From: Candidatus Diapherotrites archaeon CG08_land_8_20_14_0_20_30_16
GTDB lineage: Archaea > Iainarchaeota > Iainarchaeia > Iainarchaeales > 0-14-0-20-30-16
Length of the DNA: 7,874 bases
NCBI GenBank assembly: GCA_002779075.1
Contig: PEXK01000020.1
Location: 1-7,874, forward strand
Direction of reading: 5' to 3'
In this document: positions 668 through 7,498 of the stretch, piece after piece
Layout of the letters: each line of letters starts with the position of its first letter
Position numbering within the stretch: the first letter of the stretch is position 1
Translations under genes and position numbers: made by a program
The notes under the pieces: generated by a model
Databases searched by the model: none
Told to the model about the DNA's origin: nothing
Seen by the model: only the letters and a program-made list of their open reading frames with translations

Positions 668-1678
668 TTAATCACATTTTTCTATTGGTAAATAAGATAT
701 TGCGTATTTAGCAGATTCTGGTTCAACAGCCTGTCCTTTTGCATTCCAAACATCACTGCAATATGTTGCTAAAGTGCAGCCTTCACAATAATTGTAAACA
801 ACACACTTGTTTTTTTCATAATTTTTGTATTTCTTTTCAGATGTTGTTGACTTGCAGTCAATTTTCTGATAATCTTCATTCTGCTGAACATCAACAGCCT
901 GCACTTTAAACTGGGCAGGCAAAATTAAATTGAGATAAGGATTAACACCTAATTGCATAACTGCCTGCAAAATCAGTTTTTCACCAGCTTTCGGAATATC
1001 AAATTTCACATTAGGCAGAGCTTTTGAATCAAATGAATATATAGCATCAGAAAAAATATCTTTTGTTTGTTTCAAGTAACTCAAACTATCTTTTGAAACA
1101 GTTTGATTCTTTTCATTGTTTAAAACAAATATTTTGTAAGTATAACCTACAGGAAGAGTTTTTATATTTGTATTTAATATGTGTTCTCCTTGCAACTCCT
1201 GAGAATTAAAGGTGTGGAGATCATAATTCAATAAGACTAATTTAGAACCAAATAAGATACCACAGAATAAATCATTATTTTCTAATATATTATTAAGATC
1301 AGGATATTCTGTTAATAATATTCCGGGATAACAAATAACGCAGAAATCCAATTGCTTAAAATTTTCTTTTGCTAAAAAAGAAAAACCATTCTCTTTAGGG
1401 ATCAATTCAAAATTTTTATTATTACCAGAAAACCAAACAAATATCTTCAAATCCTTCAAATAGGTAGCCCCAATAAGATTATTAGTAGTTAAAAAATCCC
1501 CTTTTTTAATATCTACTTTACTGCAAGTAGGTTCACCAGCTTTAAATGTTGCAGATTTTAATGTTTTTGATATTTCCAAATAATGATCTGAAGATTTAAA
1601 AACAAAAAGTGTTAATATAATATATAGAAGCACACCAAAAACAATTGCAGCAATCAAAAGCTTAAATATATTATTCAT
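668..1678 (-). CDS. Signal-anchored (type II) Cys-rich extracellular protein, orphan, about 336 aa
   Basis: The track ORF 668-1696 starts at a TTG. The first ATG (complement of 1676-1678) gives MNNIFKLLIAAIVFGVLLYIILTLFVF, a single N-terminal hydrophobic helix. There are 10 Cys in total, and 6 of them lie in the last ~65 residues (DCK..KCVVYNYCEGC..YCSD..EKCD). I recognise no catalytic motif. A TATA-like TTTTTATAAT (minus strand, 1698-1707) lies 20-29 nt upstream of the ATG. Confidence 0.72.
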   Translation of the reverse strand: MNNIFKLLIAAIVFGVLLYIILTLFVFKSSDHYLEISKTLKSATFKAGEPTCSKVDIKKGDFLTTNNLIGATYLKDLKIFVWFSGNNKNFELIPKENGFSFLAKENFKQLDFCVICYPGILLTEYPDLNNILENNDLFCGILFGSKLVLLNYDLHTFNSQELQGEHILNTNIKTLPVGYTYKIFVLNNEKNQTVSKDSLSYLKQTKDIFSDAIYSFDSKALPNVKFDIPKAGEKLILQAVMQLGVNPYLNLILPAQFKVQAVDVQQNEDYQKIDCKSTTSEKKYKNYEKNKCVVYNYCEGCTLATYCSDVWNAKGQAVEPESAKYAISYLPIEKCD

Positions 1679-1726: not shown

Positions 1727-2974
1727 TTAATCAAGCTTTCCAATATATCTTCTGCCTACACCCTGCAATTTTTTACTTTGTTGATAATGATTCAAAAAAT
1801 CACTTAAACCCATATTATAAGCCTTGCAGGCATCATCGTAATCAGTGTCAATAACTTCATAATAATACTTAAATATTAAAGTGCCAACAAGTATATTGTA
1901 ATAGGGATTATACAATTCTTTTTCTTTAATTTTCATACCTATTATTCTTTCTAAACCATCTATTAAAACATCAACTTCTTTAAGTGCTATTGGCCTTACC
2001 TGCATTAATCCTATTGCTCCACTTCTTCTGTTTACTGCGTTATATTTGAAACCAGACTCAACATCAATTAATCTTAAAACAAATTTAGAATCCAAATCTA
2101 AATAACCACAAAGAAATTCAACAAAATTTGCAATCTCTTCTTTTTGTTTTTCAAATGACAGTTTAGCAAATTGTTCTGAAGTTAAAATAGAATATCTTTC
2201 AATTGAAACAATTAAATCTTTCATTATTGTTTTTGCTCTTGCAAATGCTTTTTGTCTATCAAATCCAGTAAAATAATCAGCTTCAGTCTTTTTCAAAAGC
2301 CTTGCAATTTTCGCACGTTTTACTTCAAATTGTTTTTTTGGCAGATTCCCAAACTTATAAACAGTTAACAAACCAGGTACATCTCTAATACCTGTTTTTT
2401 TACGTATGTGTGAAAATAAAACTGCACCCAAATCCATACCCAAAAAAGGGTCATCTAAAAGGTCTTGCCTACTAATTTGTCTTCCCAAAATAGTACTCAA
2501 TGTTCTAAAATCTGCAATACCTAATGGATTCTCTAAATCAAAAGAATTGTTAAAAAAAATAAATCTAAAAAGTCTAGGATCTAAATTAGCTCTATTTGCA
2601 ACAATATCAATATAATGATCAAACAAATCCATAATTTCATATGGATATTTTTTCAAAAGAACTTTTGCTTTTAATTTGTGTAAATTTAAATCTTCTAGCT
2701 TTGACAAACTAGTCAAATCATCAAACATCTGTTTAGCTCTAAGCTCTGGATTTATTATTTGTTCTTCTAAATTTATATAACCTGCTCTTTTACTTACTAT
2801 TTCCTTCTCTGGACCTCTTCGTTCAACCAGAGCAGTTCTTTGTCTTACATCAAATGGATTAATACTCCTAGTACCCTTAATTGCATGATGGCTTATACCA
2901 ACTGCTAACCCGGCAACCAAAGCACCAGCAACAACACCTTTGGCAATTCTTCTATACTTTGGTTTAAGAGGCAT
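1727..2974 (-). CDS. Membrane-anchored lytic transglycosylase (SLT / GH23 family 1-like domain) protein, 415 aa
   Basis: The N-terminus MPLKPKYRRIAKGVVAGALVAGLAVGISHH has a positively charged start followed by one TM helix. The C-terminal region carries the SLT signature in the canonical order: LIDVESGF (catalytic Glu306, codon 2057-2059), SGAIGLMQV, YNPYYNILVGTLIFKYY, then AYNMG. Confidence 0.85.
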   Translation of the reverse strand: MPLKPKYRRIAKGVVAGALVAGLAVGISHHAIKGTRSINPFDVRQRTALVERRGPEKEIVSKRAGYINLEEQIINPELRAKQMFDDLTSLSKLEDLNLHKLKAKVLLKKYPYEIMDLFDHYIDIVANRANLDPRLFRFIFFNNSFDLENPLGIADFRTLSTILGRQISRQDLLDDPFLGMDLGAVLFSHIRKKTGIRDVPGLLTVYKFGNLPKKQFEVKRAKIARLLKKTEADYFTGFDRQKAFARAKTIMKDLIVSIERYSILTSEQFAKLSFEKQKEEIANFVEFLCGYLDLDSKFVLRLIDVESGFKYNAVNRRSGAIGLMQVRPIALKEVDVLIDGLERIIGMKIKEKELYNPYYNILVGTLIFKYYYEVIDTDYDDACKAYNMGLSDFLNHYQQSKKLQGVGRRYIGKLD

Positions 2975-3045
2975 ATCTAATTTATAAGCTCAAGGTTTAT
3001 ATAATTATCTTGGTTTTTATATATAATATCTAAATTAAATAAGTA
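2975..3045. promoter_or_regulatory. Divergent promoter region with two TATA-like boxes, one per strand
   Basis: The 71-bp spacer separates divergent start codons at 2974 (-) and 3046 (+). GGTTTATATAAT (2994-3005) lies about 26 nt from the minus-strand ATG. TTTTTATATATAAT (3014-3027) lies about 26 nt from the plus-strand ATG. This spacing fits archaeal TATA-to-TSS distances for leaderless mRNAs. TATA-like strings are common in AT-rich DNA, so this is weak evidence. Confidence 0.4.
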
Positions 3046-4308
3046 ATGCTATTTAATTTGCATCAATATATAAAATTAAACTGCCTAGTGTGTAAAGTGG
3101 TGAAGATGGAAAGGCTTGATGAAAAAAGAGGGGAATTTAATTTAAATGTATTTCAAGCAATAGATAGTGATAACACATTTGAACAATTGAAAACAGAACT
3201 TAGTATAATCAAAATGCATGCACAGAGTCTAAAGTTGGAGAATCAAACACTTTCTGCAGAAAAGGAAAAACTAGAAAAAACATTAACTGCTTTTAAAAAT
3301 ATGCCTGCAATTGTCGGCGCAATATCTGAAATTTTTATTGAAAAAAAGAGAGCAGTAATAAGAACACACACGGGAGTTACATTTTATATTAATATTCCTG
3401 AAACATTTAAAGAAAAAATAAATATTGATGATAGAGTTGTTTTAGCACAAAGTAATTTAGCAATGTTAGATGTTTTGCCACCAGAAAAAGATTATAGGGC
3501 TTTAGCTTTTGAAATAAATGAAAAACCCAATGTAAGTCTAAAAGAAATTGGCGGTTTAAAAGAAATAATTCAAGAAGTTGAAGAAACTGTTATTTTGCCA
3601 ATGACTAATCCTCAGATATTCAAAAAATTTAATGTTGAGTCACCAAAAGGGGTTTTACTTCACGGCCCGCCAGGAACTGGAAAAACAATGATTGCAAAAG
3701 CAATAGCATCAAAAACAAACTCTACTTTTATTTCTTTATCTGGTTCGGAATTAGTACATAAATATATTGGTGAAGGTGCTAAAGTTGTAAAAGATCTTTT
3801 CAAACTCGCAAAAGAAAAATCACCAACAGTTATTTTTATTGATGAAATAGATTCTGTTGCGGGATACAGAATGGAAAATACAACTGGTGCAGACAGAGAA
3901 GTAAACAGAACTATGACCCAATTATTAGTTGAAATGGATGGTTTTAAAGAAAGTGACAACATAAAAGTAATTGCAGCAACAAATAGAATAGATATTTTAG
4001 ACAAAGCAGTTCTGCGTCCAGGAAGATTTGATAGAATTGTTGAAATCTATCCCCCCAGAACTGAAGATCGAAAAGATATTTTTAATATATATTTGCAAAA
4101 AGTGCCAATGCAAAAACTGGATTTTGAAGAAATAATTGAAAAAACAGAAGGAGCAAGTGGTGCTGAGATTAAACTTATATGCAAGGAAGCAGCAATATTT
4201 GCAATAAGAGAAAACAAAAACAAAGTAACACAAAAAAACATGTTAGATGCGATAAACAAAATACTTAAAAAAAATGTTAAAGAAGAACAAAAAAGAATTT
4301 ACAGGTGA
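3046..4308 (+). CDS. pan: Proteasome-activating nucleotidase (PAN; archaeal Rpt-type AAA+ ATPase)
   Basis: A coiled-coil segment (QLKTELSIIKMHAQSLKLENQTLSAEKEKLEKTL) is followed by an OB-like segment (AIVGAISEIF..RAVIRTHTGVTFYINIP..VVLAQSNLAMLDVLP). Walker A is GPPGTGKT (3664-3687). The pore loop is KYIGEG. Walker B is VIFIDEID (DE at 3841-3846). The second region of homology with the Arg finger is ATNRIDILDKAVLRPGRFDR. The C-terminal HbYX motif is I-Y-R (4297-4305). An alternative start is M21 at 3106 (MERLDEK). Confidence 0.95.
   Translation: MLFNLHQYIKLNCLVCKVVKMERLDEKRGEFNLNVFQAIDSDNTFEQLKTELSIIKMHAQSLKLENQTLSAEKEKLEKTLTAFKNMPAIVGAISEIFIEKKRAVIRTHTGVTFYINIPETFKEKINIDDRVVLAQSNLAMLDVLPPEKDYRALAFEINEKPNVSLKEIGGLKEIIQEVEETVILPMTNPQIFKKFNVESPKGVLLHGPPGTGKTMIAKAIASKTNSTFISLSGSELVHKYIGEGAKVVKDLFKLAKEKSPTVIFIDEIDSVAGYRMENTTGADREVNRTMTQLLVEMDGFKESDNIKVIAATNRIDILDKAVLRPGRFDRIVEIYPPRTEDRKDIFNIYLQKVPMQKLDFEEIIEKTEGASGAEIKLICKEAAIFAIRENKNKVTQKNMLDAINKILKKNVKEEQKRIYR
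4303..4308 (+). promoter_or_regulatory. Shine-Dalgarno-like AGGTGA overlapping the last sense codon and stop codon of pan
   Basis: The sequence is TAC AGG TGA gatttg ATG. AGGTGA matches the complement of the archaeal/bacterial 16S 3' tail and sits 6 nt upstream of the ATG at 4315. Confidence 0.55.
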
Positions 4309-4314
4309 GATTTG

Positions 4315-4767
4315 ATGTTTATGAATAAAAAAGAATTAATGTATTTGGGAATAATTACTTTTGTGTTTTTAATTATTATTTTCATTTTGGTTTTGGTTCT
4401 ACCATTAAAACAGGATATTCCTAAAGATACAAATGATTCGAACAACCCCGATACAAATAATCAGAACCCTGCATTTGATGGCAATGTTGATCAAAAATTA
4501 GCACAGAAACAAAGTGTTGAGGATAATGCAAAAGAACTTTGCATAAAGATGTGCAAAGATTATAACAATTCAATAAGCTATAAAAAGGGGCCTTGTTTAT
4601 CTGATAATTTTGGCTTTAAACAAGAAGACTGGGTATGCGATATTGCACACGACCCAAGAACAGAAGAAGATAATGATCAAAAGAATCAATGCAAAGCATT
4701 TATTAATGTAAAAGCACATCACTTTGTTGAAGTTGATGAACGCTGTAATTTCATACGTTTATATTAA
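4315..4767 (+). CDS. Small signal-anchored Cys-rich protein, orphan, about 150 aa
   Basis: The track ORF begins at TTG 4312, and I prefer ATG 4315 (or 4321) because of the AGGTGA just upstream. There is one TM helix (LMYLGIITFVFLIIIFILVLVLPL), then an N/D/P-rich linker (DTNDSNNPDTNNQNPAFDGN), then a C-terminal domain with 6 Cys (CIKMC, GPCLSD, WVCDIAHDPR, NQC, ERC). Confidence 0.7.
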   Translation: MFMNKKELMYLGIITFVFLIIIFILVLVLPLKQDIPKDTNDSNNPDTNNQNPAFDGNVDQKLAQKQSVEDNAKELCIKMCKDYNNSISYKKGPCLSDNFGFKQEDWVCDIAHDPRTEEDNDQKNQCKAFINVKAHHFVEVDERCNFIRLY

Positions 4768-5042: not shown

Positions 5043-5723
5043 ATGGTTAAATTAGTTTTGATTAGACATGGAGAATCAGTTTGGAATAAATTAAATGAAT
5101 TTACTGGCTGGGTAGATGTTCCTTTGAGTAATAAAGGAATAAAACAAGCAATTAATGCAGGAAAAATTCTGCACAAAATAAAGATAAAATTTGATTCTAT
5201 TTACACTTCTGAATTAGTAAGAGCACATCAAACTCTCTTCCATATACTGGAACAAATGCATTTAGAAACTGTTGTTTACCATGTTGATGACCCGGAATTA
5301 GAAAAAATGGCTAGTCATCACATACAGGACAAGGAATTACCCATATACAAAACTATTGCGTTGAATGAAAGACATTATGGCGATTTACAAGGTCAAAACA
5401 AAGATGAAATGAGGAAAAAATATGGAAAAGAACAAGTCGAAATTTGGAGAAGAAGTTACAATACAAAACCTCCGCACGGGGAGTCTTTAGAAGACACCCT
5501 ACACAGAACATTGCCTTATTTTAAAAAATTTATTTTGCCAGAATTAATAAAGGGACGGAATGTTTTGATTGTTGCTCATGGTAACAGTCAGAGAGCAATA
5601 ACAAAATATCTGGAACACATTAGTGACAAAGAAATTCCAAAATATGAAATTCCTTTGGGCTTGCCAATAGTTTATGATTTGGATAAAAAAATGAAAATAA
5701 AAAACAAACTGATTCTGAAATAA
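5043..5723 (+). CDS. gpmA: 2,3-bisphosphoglycerate-dependent phosphoglycerate mutase (histidine phosphatase superfamily, dPGM)
   Basis: The N-terminus LVLIRHGESVWNKLNEFTGWVDVPLSNKGIKQA carries the dPGM RHGES-WN-N-FTGW signature. NERHYGDLQG, EIWRRSY and VAHGNSQRA (second catalytic His) are also present. The start lies 2 nt after the ferredoxin stop, with AGGA 6 nt upstream. Confidence 0.92.
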   Translation: MVKLVLIRHGESVWNKLNEFTGWVDVPLSNKGIKQAINAGKILHKIKIKFDSIYTSELVRAHQTLFHILEQMHLETVVYHVDDPELEKMASHHIQDKELPIYKTIALNERHYGDLQGQNKDEMRKKYGKEQVEIWRRSYNTKPPHGESLEDTLHRTLPYFKKFILPELIKGRNVLIVAHGNSQRAITKYLEHISDKEIPKYEIPLGLPIVYDLDKKMKIKNKLILK

Positions 5724-6351: not shown

Positions 6352-6924
6352 TCACTTCTTAGGCTCCCAATGCTCAAAGCAACGAGGTTCATATTTGTTT
6401 GAACCACCAACATCTACTTCATGGCCTGTTGCTTCTATTTTGAAAGTTTTTGTTGCAAACTTGCCACAAATTGGACAAATTGCAGTGAAGGTATTTATAT
6501 AATCTGCTTTTGCCAACAAAGTACCTACATCTGCTTTCTTGTCCATAAACGGAAATGGATGCCCTTCTGAAGTCTGATTCAAAACAGAAACATAAACATT
6601 AATACTCTCTTTTCTCAAATCGTCAATAACATTTAATACTTTGGAGTTAAAGAATTGTGCTTCATCAATAAAAACATTGTCTGGTTTCTCTAAGCCTACA
6701 ACTTCATTTAATTCTTCAATATTCAGTAAAACATAGCTTTTTCTTGTTCTATTATCATGTGTTGACACATCAGTATTTGAATATCTGTTATCCAACATTG
6801 GCTTTACTATAATTGATTTTTGATTTGCATATGTTGTTCTATCATAAAGTCTAATTAACTCAGATGTTTTTCCTGCGAACATAGGGCCTGATATAACCCA
6901 AAGCAAACCTTTTGAATAATGCAT
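6352..6924 (-). CDS. tdk: Thymidine kinase (TK1 / Tdk family)
   Basis: The P-loop is GPMFAGKTSELI and Walker B is VFIDEAQFF. The C-terminal zinc ligands are CPICG....RCFEH. The domain order matches Tdk. I prefer ATG 6924 (MHYSKGLLWVISGPMF) over the track's GTG 6936 because AGGTGGGTGA lies directly upstream. Confidence 0.92.
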   Translation of the reverse strand: MHYSKGLLWVISGPMFAGKTSELIRLYDRTTYANQKSIIVKPMLDNRYSNTDVSTHDNRTRKSYVLLNIEELNEVVGLEKPDNVFIDEAQFFNSKVLNVIDDLRKESINVYVSVLNQTSEGHPFPFMDKKADVGTLLAKADYINTFTAICPICGKFATKTFKIEATGHEVDVGGSNKYEPRCFEHWEPKK

Positions 6925-6928
6925 ATTT

Positions 6929-7498
6929 TCACCCACCTGTTAATTCATTAATATTTATATTGTGTTCTTTGAATAATTCTTCAAATAAAATTTCTGTTGC
7001 TTTTTTATTCTCAATACTCAGTTTTTTGGAGTAATCTAAAATATAATTAGATATTCTTCTTGCAATATCTAGCCTGCCTGTTTTTATATATGCTACAGTT
7101 GCTAAAATTGCACAATCCATATTAATATCTAAATTATGCTCATTAATCAATTTCAATAACCTAGTATATAACTCAATAACCCTCTCATATTTTGCAGATC
7201 TTAAAAAGAAATGAATTGTATTTTGATAAACAAATTCAAAACCTTCTTGTGGTTTAAAAGGATTTACTCTTTCAAGCTCTCCTAAAAGATATCCTTCTAA
7301 TATTTGTAATTGTTCTTTTGACAAATTTTCTGGGCAAATATCAAATCTTCTTGCTAGTTCTATTGCTAACTTTGTGTTTAATAGCTCTTCCCTTTGATCT
7401 CTGACCAACCTTAGTCCAGTGCTGGTGTTCCTTTCTGAGGTCTGTAATAAAACAAACCTATTTGCTGGTCTTTTTGACACCATATATTCAAATAACAT
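6929..7498 (-). CDS. Hypothetical protein, probably all-alpha and cytoplasmic, 189 aa. It is the first gene of the tdk operon.
   Basis: This is a clean ATG-started ORF, with a second ATG at codon 6. It has no TM segment and no motif I recognise. It contains amphipathic helix-like stretches (YERVIELYTRLLKLINEH, LDIARRISNYILDY). Its stop is embedded in the tdk ribosome-binding site, which implies co-transcription and coupling. Confidence 0.68.
   Translation of the reverse strand: MLFEYMVSKRPANRFVLLQTSERNTSTGLRLVRDQREELLNTKLAIELARRFDICPENLSKEQLQILEGYLLGELERVNPFKPQEGFEFVYQNTIHFFLRSAKYERVIELYTRLLKLINEHNLDINMDCAILATVAYIKTGRLDIARRISNYILDYSKKLSIENKKATEILFEELFKEHNININELTGG
6931..6940 (-). promoter_or_regulatory. 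Shine-Dalgarno-like AGGTGGGTGA overlapping the terminal Gly-Gly codons and stop of the upstream gene
   Basis: On the minus strand the sequence reads ACA GGT GGG TGA aaat ATG. GGTGA ends 6 nt before the tdk ATG at 6924. Confidence 0.55.

Follow-up and report, generated by a model that had tools for sequence, protein, structure and literature searches.

The window analyzed here, a 7,874-nucleotide stretch of contig PEXK01000020.1 from Candidatus Diapherotrites archaeon CG08_land_8_20_14_0_20_30_16, carries on its minus strand an open reading frame (ORF; positions 1727..2974) that encodes a 415-amino-acid (aa) SLT-family protein with a putative export signal. The gene was recognized from the ORF and its match to Pfam SLT, and its product is deposited in GenBank as PIU22437.1, 'hypothetical protein'. 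An original prediction made from the sequence had described the product as an externally anchored murein-type lytic transglycosylase, likely acquired horizontally by an archaeon and most plausibly acting on the wall of another organism. That interpretation is partly supported: the ORF is present as predicted, the identity of the domain and the archaeal context are borne out below, and the target and the anchoring remain putative. The prediction missed two conserved features described here, a catalytically dead lysozyme-like domain within the protein and a partner gene beside it.

Domain organization and predicted structure

The C-terminal part of the protein matches PF01464 (Pfam SLT) over aa 294–402 with 57.3 bits (E = 1.4e-15; gathering score 21.3), and all SLT-family relatives tested score 54–60 bits against Pfam SLT. 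The specific bacterial lytic transglycosylase models in NCBIfam are matched weakly and always below threshold, so the domain is a divergent member of its class. Pfam, the sequence motifs, and the family alignment together place the catalytic SLT domain at aa 274–402 (1769..2155, minus strand). Within it, four motifs occur in order: motif I, E306-S307; motif II, GLMQ (322–325); motif III, NPYYNILVG (356–364; pattern tested, N/D-P-x-x-N-[IL]-x-x-G); and motif IV, AYNMG (385–389; pattern tested, A-Y-N-x-G). The Pfam match and the motifs uphold the family-1 SLT signature that the original prediction had read from Glu306, GLMQ, and AYNMG. Glycoside hydrolase family 23 (GH23) is the corresponding enzyme class. 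The codon of the predicted catalytic Glu306 is GAG (CTC on the plus strand; 2057..2059, minus strand), and the residue aligns with E478 of Slt70 and E64 of MltE.

A phmmer search of PDB sequences with the single protein returned no match, but the family profile matched the solved structures of MltC (E = 8e-8), Slt70 (8e-7), and MltE (3e-6). In these alignments, the Glu-Ser of the family coincides with '...ARQES' of Slt70 (residue 478, chain numbering) and with '...AIES' of MltE (residue 64), and structure entries of MltE E64Q carry an inactive-mutant label. Glu306 and Ser307 are invariant in 10/10 full-length family members, whose overall identity is only 26–38%; motifs II–IV are invariant or nearly so across the same 10 proteins. 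Invariant positions in the family alignment are E306, S307, A320, G322, L323, Q325, G346, L354, P357, Y358, G364, Y370, and G389. The comparisons confirm, at the level of sequence, that the domain is of the family-1 lytic transglycosylase (SLT/GH23) type and that its catalytic Glu-Ser is intact; its identity and probable catalytic competence are well supported by alignment and model. A related contig (L091, positions 1–387) carries an SLT-family fragment upstream of a homolog of the partner gene (P0187), in which Glu-Ser and GLMQ are kept and YEFG replaces AYNxG; motif IV is therefore not kept throughout the wider family.

The AlphaFold2 model, built from the family alignment, has predicted local distance difference test (pLDDT) values of 83–98 for aa 100–415 and below 50 for aa 1–79 and 87–98. 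In the catalytic region (aa 270–415; pLDDT 84–98), the model places E306 at the end of a helix (296–307) followed by short strands, in keeping with the lysozyme-like fold anticipated by the original prediction. In a Foldseek comparison of the whole model with the PDB, the best matches were exclusively lytic transglycosylases (LtgA, Slt, Slt70, MltE, MltC, and phiKZ gp144), with sequence identities in the structural alignments of only ~15–22%. The named matches in BFVD were nearly all phage LT_GEWL, transglycosylase, lysin, or other virion proteins.

N-terminal to the SLT domain lies a degenerate SLT-like domain without the catalytic Glu (aa 111–210; 2345..2644, minus strand), identified by hhalign, a separate AlphaFold model, and Foldseek. 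This middle region has conserved motifs of its own (F-x-L-x-NPLG, DPFLxIDxG, and LTxYLxG), and hhalign aligns it collinearly with the SLT domain of the same protein (probability 65%, E = 6e-5). Modeled alone, aa 100–255 reach a pLDDT of 90.6, and the top 24 Foldseek matches of this model in the PDB are all lytic transglycosylases (MltE, MltC, and MltF), followed by Slt, g-type lysozymes, the phi6 lysin, and a T7 ejectosome protein. The TM-score is ~0.5, and the superposition on MltF has a root-mean-square deviation of 2.8 Å over 110 columns. The residue equivalent to E306 is N142, a position occupied by N, R, V, L, or S across the family and followed by N, T, R, or S; a domain with these residues would be unable to use the acid catalysis of the family. 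Mean pairwise identity within the family is 0.32 for the degenerate domain, 0.37 for the catalytic domain, and 0.17–0.19 for the linkers, and conservation nearly as strong as that of the catalytic domain indicates that the degenerate domain has kept a function, of which the binding of glycan is the most plausible. A long helix (aa 213–252; 2219..2338, minus strand; DSSP on the model, pLDDT 86–96) is predicted to connect the two lysozyme-like domains.

The first 30 residues (2885..2974, minus strand) form a predicted export signal, recognized by family comparison and overlapping a low-confidence helix (8–22) in the model. All ten full-length members share a conserved M-P-x-K-P-like start, 3–8 Lys/Arg residues, and an uncharged hydrophobic stretch of 14–20 residues; the protein from the window has five Lys/Arg followed by a 20-residue uncharged stretch with a Kyte-Doolittle value of 1.9. 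A poorly conserved, probably disordered stalk or linker follows (aa 31–105; 2660..2884, minus strand; low pLDDT, mean pairwise family identity 0.17). Neither a lipobox Cys nor a recognizable C-terminal sorting signal was found in the protein. We infer that the N-terminus directs export, whether it is retained as a signal anchor or removed as a signal peptide. The positively charged N-terminus and hydrophobic stretch of the original prediction are thus present, although its 'one TM helix' is indistinguishable from a cleavable signal peptide because the stretch spans only 14–20 residues across the family. The attribute 'externally anchored' is only one of two readings of the N-terminus, a cleaved signal being the other: the long stalk would favor tethering, and the short hydrophobic stretch of most members would favor cleavage.

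Archaeal context and family distribution

Divergently oriented to the SLT gene is a gene for the proteasome-activating nucleotidase PAN (3046..4308, plus strand), an archaeal marker. Its product scores 461 bits against NCBIfam PRK03992 (profile positions 7–377), just under the 500-bit subfamily cut-off, has a weak match to the Pfam OB C-terminal domain, and ends in ...IYR, an HbYX motif. Among GTDB species genomes, full-length matches to PAN are all archaeal, the best being from a Woesearchaeota metagenome-assembled genome (MAG; 47%), and bacterial matches cover the AAA module only. Comparison with the PANs of two related contigs (L008 and L090) suggests that the real start is M21 (ATG at 3106), and a TATA-like 'ATATATAAAA' lies ~30 nt upstream of this start. 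The A+T-rich intergenic region between the two divergent genes (2975..3045, assigned to neither strand) has TATA-like elements on both strands, which are putative promoters; a sigma-70 promoter and terminator scan gave no enrichment over shuffled sequences and is uninformative on archaeal promoters. Deoxyhypusine synthase and a pyruvoyl S-adenosylmethionine decarboxylase are also encoded on the contig.

The exact protein recurs on ENA contig k141_438744 (39.5 kb, of which 17 kb was read; in all, 17–20 kb around the SLT gene was covered) and on a Logan contig, with near-identical copies on JGI contigs, on further ENA contigs, and in GenBank under PIU22437.1, the record of which reads 'MAG: hypothetical protein COT14_01155 [Candidatus Diapherotrites archaeon ...]'. 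The window and two further lineages share a conserved gene order, in which a ferredoxin gene, a gene for a 145–151-aa protein, and PAN lie on one side of the divergent intergenic region, and the SLT gene and a gene for a 328–336-aa protein lie on the other. Relative to the window, the lineage represented by contigs L008, L092, and L093 is 72% identical in PAN, 31% in the SLT protein, and 40% in the 328–336-aa partner, and the lineage of L090 is 66% identical in PAN and 31% in the SLT protein. The L091 contig keeps the pair of SLT and partner genes, and L092 additionally encodes archaeal Nre and Trm5/TYW2. The SLT gene itself has a G+C content (GC) of 0.30, a third-position GC (GC3) of 0.166 against 0.178 in PAN, and a root-mean-square codon-usage distance of 0.092 against 0.091 in PAN. 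Because the order of PAN, SLT, and partner genes recurs in independent assemblies and diverged lineages, and because codon usage matches, the SLT region is not chimeric. The locus is archaeal and represents neither contamination nor recent transfer, which settles in its favor the archaeal origin that the original prediction had drawn from PAN and its HbYX motif.

The partner gene (668..1678, minus strand) encodes a 336-aa protein with an N-terminal transmembrane segment, 10 invariant Cys residues, and no known domain, 40% identical to its counterpart on L008. It follows the SLT gene directly in four lineages, and only four cluster representatives were found; Pfam, NCBIfam, PHROG, and PADLOC gave no match. 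The partner may act together with the SLT protein. Its gene has a TATA-like element of its own ~25 nt upstream, which makes co-transcription of the two uncertain. In other contigs the partner gene is followed by a DedA/VTT-family gene (L092, 10467–11081; L094, 2926–3612; L001, 12315–12452), the product of which resembles the bacterial undecaprenyl-phosphate transporter UptA (NCBIfam, 126 bits, below the cut-off). The row of SLT, Cys-rich membrane protein, and DedA/UptA-like genes is thus conserved. An M14 peptidase encoded ~8 kb downstream in a related contig was considered as a murein-peptide amidase and dropped, as it scores only 24 bits against MpaA; its best match is to an acetyl-ornithine deacetylase model, far below the cut-off.

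When all 1.84 billion cluster representatives were scanned with HMMER, 205 matched. About 10 of these (P0002–P0011) align from ~aa 80–115 to the end of the protein, are 382–420 aa long where complete, and are 29–38% identical to it; the remaining matches are restricted to the SLT domain (E = 1e-14 to 1e-3). With only ~10 representatives matching beyond the SLT domain, the protein belongs to a rare and distinct family. A word-indexed homolog search recovered only the protein itself when queried with the single sequence and only two members when queried with the family alignment. A scan of GTDB species genomes with family patterns yielded no relative, and also did not recover this locus itself, although the patterns match the protein; the source MAG thus seems to be missing from that collection. 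On one further contig (L007, 151–2946), two short genes with an SLT domain (P0016, 151 aa, and P0012, 154 aa) come after family member P0010 in the same orientation, making a local cluster of three SLT genes; P0016 and P0012 are the closest relatives of the SLT domain of the window outside the family.

SLT domains are overwhelmingly bacterial, and on general grounds a bacterial origin of the gene is likely, ancient if so. No recent donor could be identified among the bacterial, phage, and plasmid matches, the closest of which are only ~30–40% identical in the domain. The gene is old in the clade: it has been passed on vertically, its composition is fully ameliorated, and it evolves fast, as is common among proteins of the cell surface and of interactions. 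Given this amelioration, vertical inheritance, and distance to outside domains, any horizontal acquisition must be ancient, and the acquisition from bacteria put forward by the original prediction holds only in that form, not as a recent transfer. An origin from a mobile element, phage, or defense system was rejected: a viral contig collection contained no relative of the archaeal SLT family, PADLOC gave no match, and tblastn against phages and plasmids gave only matches of ~30% identity. Bacterial membrane-anchored double-SLT proteins (P0014, P0019, P0033, and P0041; 363–396 aa) likewise have an N-terminal hydrophobic segment and tandem domains, but both of their domains keep Glu-Ser, unlike those of the archaeal family. 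Descent from such proteins is unsupported, as is common descent of the tandem arrangement, because profile–profile comparison aligns only the SLT domain.

Proposed function and alternative explanations

The analysis bears out the identity of the domain, its catalytic motifs, the fold, the degenerate second domain, the archaeal context, and the conserved gene order; the export topology, the substrate, and the biological role of the enzyme are inferred. We propose that it acts on bacterial peptidoglycan outside the archaeal cell, whether in breaching the wall of a partner, in cutting linked to attachment, or in scavenging of wall debris, and we assign these possibilities together a probability of roughly 0.6. 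In the predicted architecture, the N-terminal export signal or anchor and the ~75-residue disordered stalk precede the dead lysozyme-like domain, which would most likely grip a glycan strand, and the long helix links this domain to the live SLT domain. If it works as the catalytic Glu of Slt70 and MltE does, Glu306 would first donate a proton to the glycosidic oxygen and next activate the C6 hydroxyl of N-acetylmuramic acid (MurNAc), a group that the lytic transglycosylase reaction needs, to form the 1,6-anhydro ring. Cleavage of the bond between MurNAc and N-acetylglucosamine (GlcNAc), MurNAc-(beta1,4)-GlcNAc, would leave a 1,6-anhydro-MurNAc end. No murein is known from the lineage, which makes bacterial peptidoglycan the most likely substrate. 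The enzyme could meet it where the archaeon touches the wall of a bacterial partner or prey, or in wall debris taken as food.

Several points weigh against this proposal. The enzyme is known here only from its sequence and predicted structure, and the lack of murein or another GlcNAc/MurNAc-type polymer in the lineage is an assumption based on what is generally known of archaea. In most family members the hydrophobic stretch measures 14–17 aa, which leaves anchoring uncertain. Proteins with a GH23 fold can also bind chitin-like chains, and some can cut them (4hjy, an MltE complex with chitopentaose, is among the Foldseek matches), and the conserved DedA/UptA-like gene two genes downstream could indicate an endogenous envelope glycan. 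The last two points, together with the vertical inheritance of the SLT gene beside housekeeping genes with no mobile island, would suit an enzyme that remodels the archaeon's own envelope glycan (for example, a GlcNAc polymer on polyprenyl-phosphate carriers), as an autolysin or a 'space-maker' for division or surface structures. We regard such a role as improbable. Pseudomurein consists of beta-1,3-linked N-acetyltalosaminuronic acid with a C6 carboxylate and has neither the C6 hydroxyl nor the beta-1,4 bond that the reaction requires, no wall-synthesis genes occur in the 17–20 kb around the SLT gene, and DedA proteins also have a general role in transporting dolichol phosphate or lipids. No report of murein or pseudomurein in Diapherotrites or DPANN archaea turned up in a targeted literature search, and reviews describe archaea as lacking peptidoglycan (PMC5744192).

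If instead the N-terminus is cleaved, as its short hydrophobic region in most members would allow, the protein could be a freely secreted antibacterial weapon for competition or defense with no part in physical symbiosis or predatory contact; bactericidal archaeal peptidoglycan hydrolases are documented (PMC12352652). This is unlikely, in that a disordered stalk of this length is more typical of tethered surface enzymes and a lone lytic transglycosylase would be unable to reach the wall of a diderm from outside. Pfam, moreover, finds no peptidoglycan-binding domain in the protein, whereas the PLoS Biology survey sought modular hydrolases in which a recognizable binding domain is paired with a catalytic one (PMC12352652). 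The same stalk, suited to a tether, and a lysozyme-like domain that is already dead yet conserved would fit a protein that is mainly an adhesin for bacterial peptidoglycan, its catalysis irrelevant or lost, and attachment to bacterial cell walls has also been proposed by Castelle 2021 (PMC8204110). Invariance of E306-S307, GLMQ, and the other catalytic-site motifs despite low overall identity is not easily accounted for unless catalysis is under selection, and makes this alternative quite improbable. That a bacterial gene was placed on the contig through mis-assembly or mis-binning might be suspected from the bacterial bias of SLT domains and from the left end of the window (1–~670), which conflicts with three other assemblies. 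This explanation is effectively refuted: the same flanking genes occur on both sides of the SLT gene in ENA, Logan, JGI, and GenBank assemblies and in three diverged lineages, the gene cannot be told apart from PAN by GC, GC3, or codon usage, and searches of bacterial, phage, and plasmid sequences found no close homolog.

Several known systems come close to the protein. Slt70, MltE/EmtA, and MltC of E. coli (PF01464, GH23) share its catalytic fold, four motifs, and Glu-Ser and are extracytoplasmic, a location predicted for the archaeal protein as well; the archaeal gene differs from them in that a degenerate second lysozyme-like domain takes the place of the superhelical U/L domains of Slt70 and of the N-terminal domain of MltC, and from MltE in the absence of a lipobox or lipoprotein signal. 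Phage virion lytic transglycosylases (PRD1 P7, T7 gp16, and phiKZ gp144), which were recovered as structural or profile matches, use an SLT-type domain to breach the wall locally from outside; unlike them, the archaeal gene is set among cellular housekeeping genes and has no relative in the viral contigs. Nothing here alters the view of how lytic transglycosylases work.

The phenomenon itself is already published, and the novelty claimed by the original prediction was overstated: murein-type lytic transglycosylases of DPANN archaea have been reported with the same interpretation (PMC8204110, PMC9723730). Castelle et al. proposed that such proteins bind and degrade bacterial walls, and credited Rinke 2013 and Castelle 2015 with previous observations (PMC8204110); Vigneron et al. 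2022 described GH23 genes in Woesearchaeota and a 'vampiristic' lifestyle (PMC9723730); and a 2024 study repeated the idea for Pacearchaeota (PMC11537232). In PLoS Biol 2025, archaeal peptidoglycan hydrolases were found to kill bacteria, with Nanoarchaeota/DPANN rich in such genes (PMC12352652), and that paper cites Metcalf 2014 for a GH25 muramidase of Aciduliprofundum boonei. These enzymes, too, are directed against a polymer foreign to archaea, but they are amidases, peptidases, and muramidases with a binding domain, whereas the protein described here is a predicted lytic transglycosylase without a recognized one. The DPANN proteins of Castelle et al. share with it the SLT/GH23 domain, a predicted export, a small-genome DPANN source, and the proposed role on bacterial walls (PMC8204110). 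They differ in being large (fam00969, up to 3,000 aa) and essentially confined to Pacearchaeota and Woesearchaeota, against 415 aa (382–420 aa in relatives) and a Diapherotrites label here; the protein may or may not fall within fam00969. Diapherotrites-labeled Crystal Geyser MAGs with 30–32% GC, corresponding to Iainarchaeota in GTDB, are listed in the table of Castelle et al. (PMC8204110). The present protein differs from the published cases in its compact size, its tandem of a dead and a live domain, its conserved gene partner, and its source in a MAG labeled Diapherotrites.

The Diapherotrites/Iainarchaeota-like lineage has so far been considered either free-living or reliant on a host yet to be identified. 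More tentatively, the SLT protein, the Cys-rich membrane protein, and perhaps the DedA-type transporter could form a conserved surface module for attaching to and feeding on bacteria, in which the dead domain clamps and the live domain cuts—a compact cross-domain 'drill' in a Diapherotrites/Iainarchaeota-like DPANN lineage, distinct from the giant proteins of Pacearchaeota and Woesearchaeota. DPANN archaea make up a large share of archaeal diversity, and hosts have been identified for only a minority of their lineages. An enzyme that cuts murein at the cell surface would be a rare sequence-level hint that a lineage interacts with bacteria rather than with other archaea, and the trait would extend beyond Pacearchaeota and Woesearchaeota to a Diapherotrites-labeled MAG. 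At 415 aa, with no repeats and one intact catalytic domain, the protein should be far easier to express and test than proteins of several thousand residues, and the conserved dead domain and partner gene offer handles for binding and localization experiments.

Other features of the window

The left end of the window, from 1 to ~670–680, conflicts with three other assemblies of the same or a near-identical strain (L001, L094, and L095). In these, as in relatives, the partner gene is followed by DedA/VTT, beta-CASP, and TatD genes; the window has instead a partial minus-strand ORF without a Pfam match, which starts at ~625 and runs off base 1. A 123-bp direct repeat also lies here (1–103 / 124–226, 91%), and the last residues of the partner protein read ..EKCD in the window and ..ESCD in the other assemblies, the exact window version not being on record. 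The left end is a rearrangement or an assembly mis-join that leaves the SLT gene untouched.

To the right of PAN, a 151-aa protein with an N-terminal transmembrane segment and a Cys-rich C-terminal half (4312–4767, plus strand) lies before the ferredoxin gene in the window, in L090, and in L092/L093. It has no known domain and appears, from its sequence, to be a further conserved small exported protein of the clade. Beyond it are genes for a 2,3-bisphosphoglycerate-dependent phosphoglycerate mutase (5043–5723, plus strand; NCBIfam PRK01112, 271 bits, and only 44 bits to dPGM_arch) and a thymidine kinase (6352–6936, minus strand). Both fit the 'hybrid bacterial/archaeal' gene content reported for DPANN archaea (PMC8204110).

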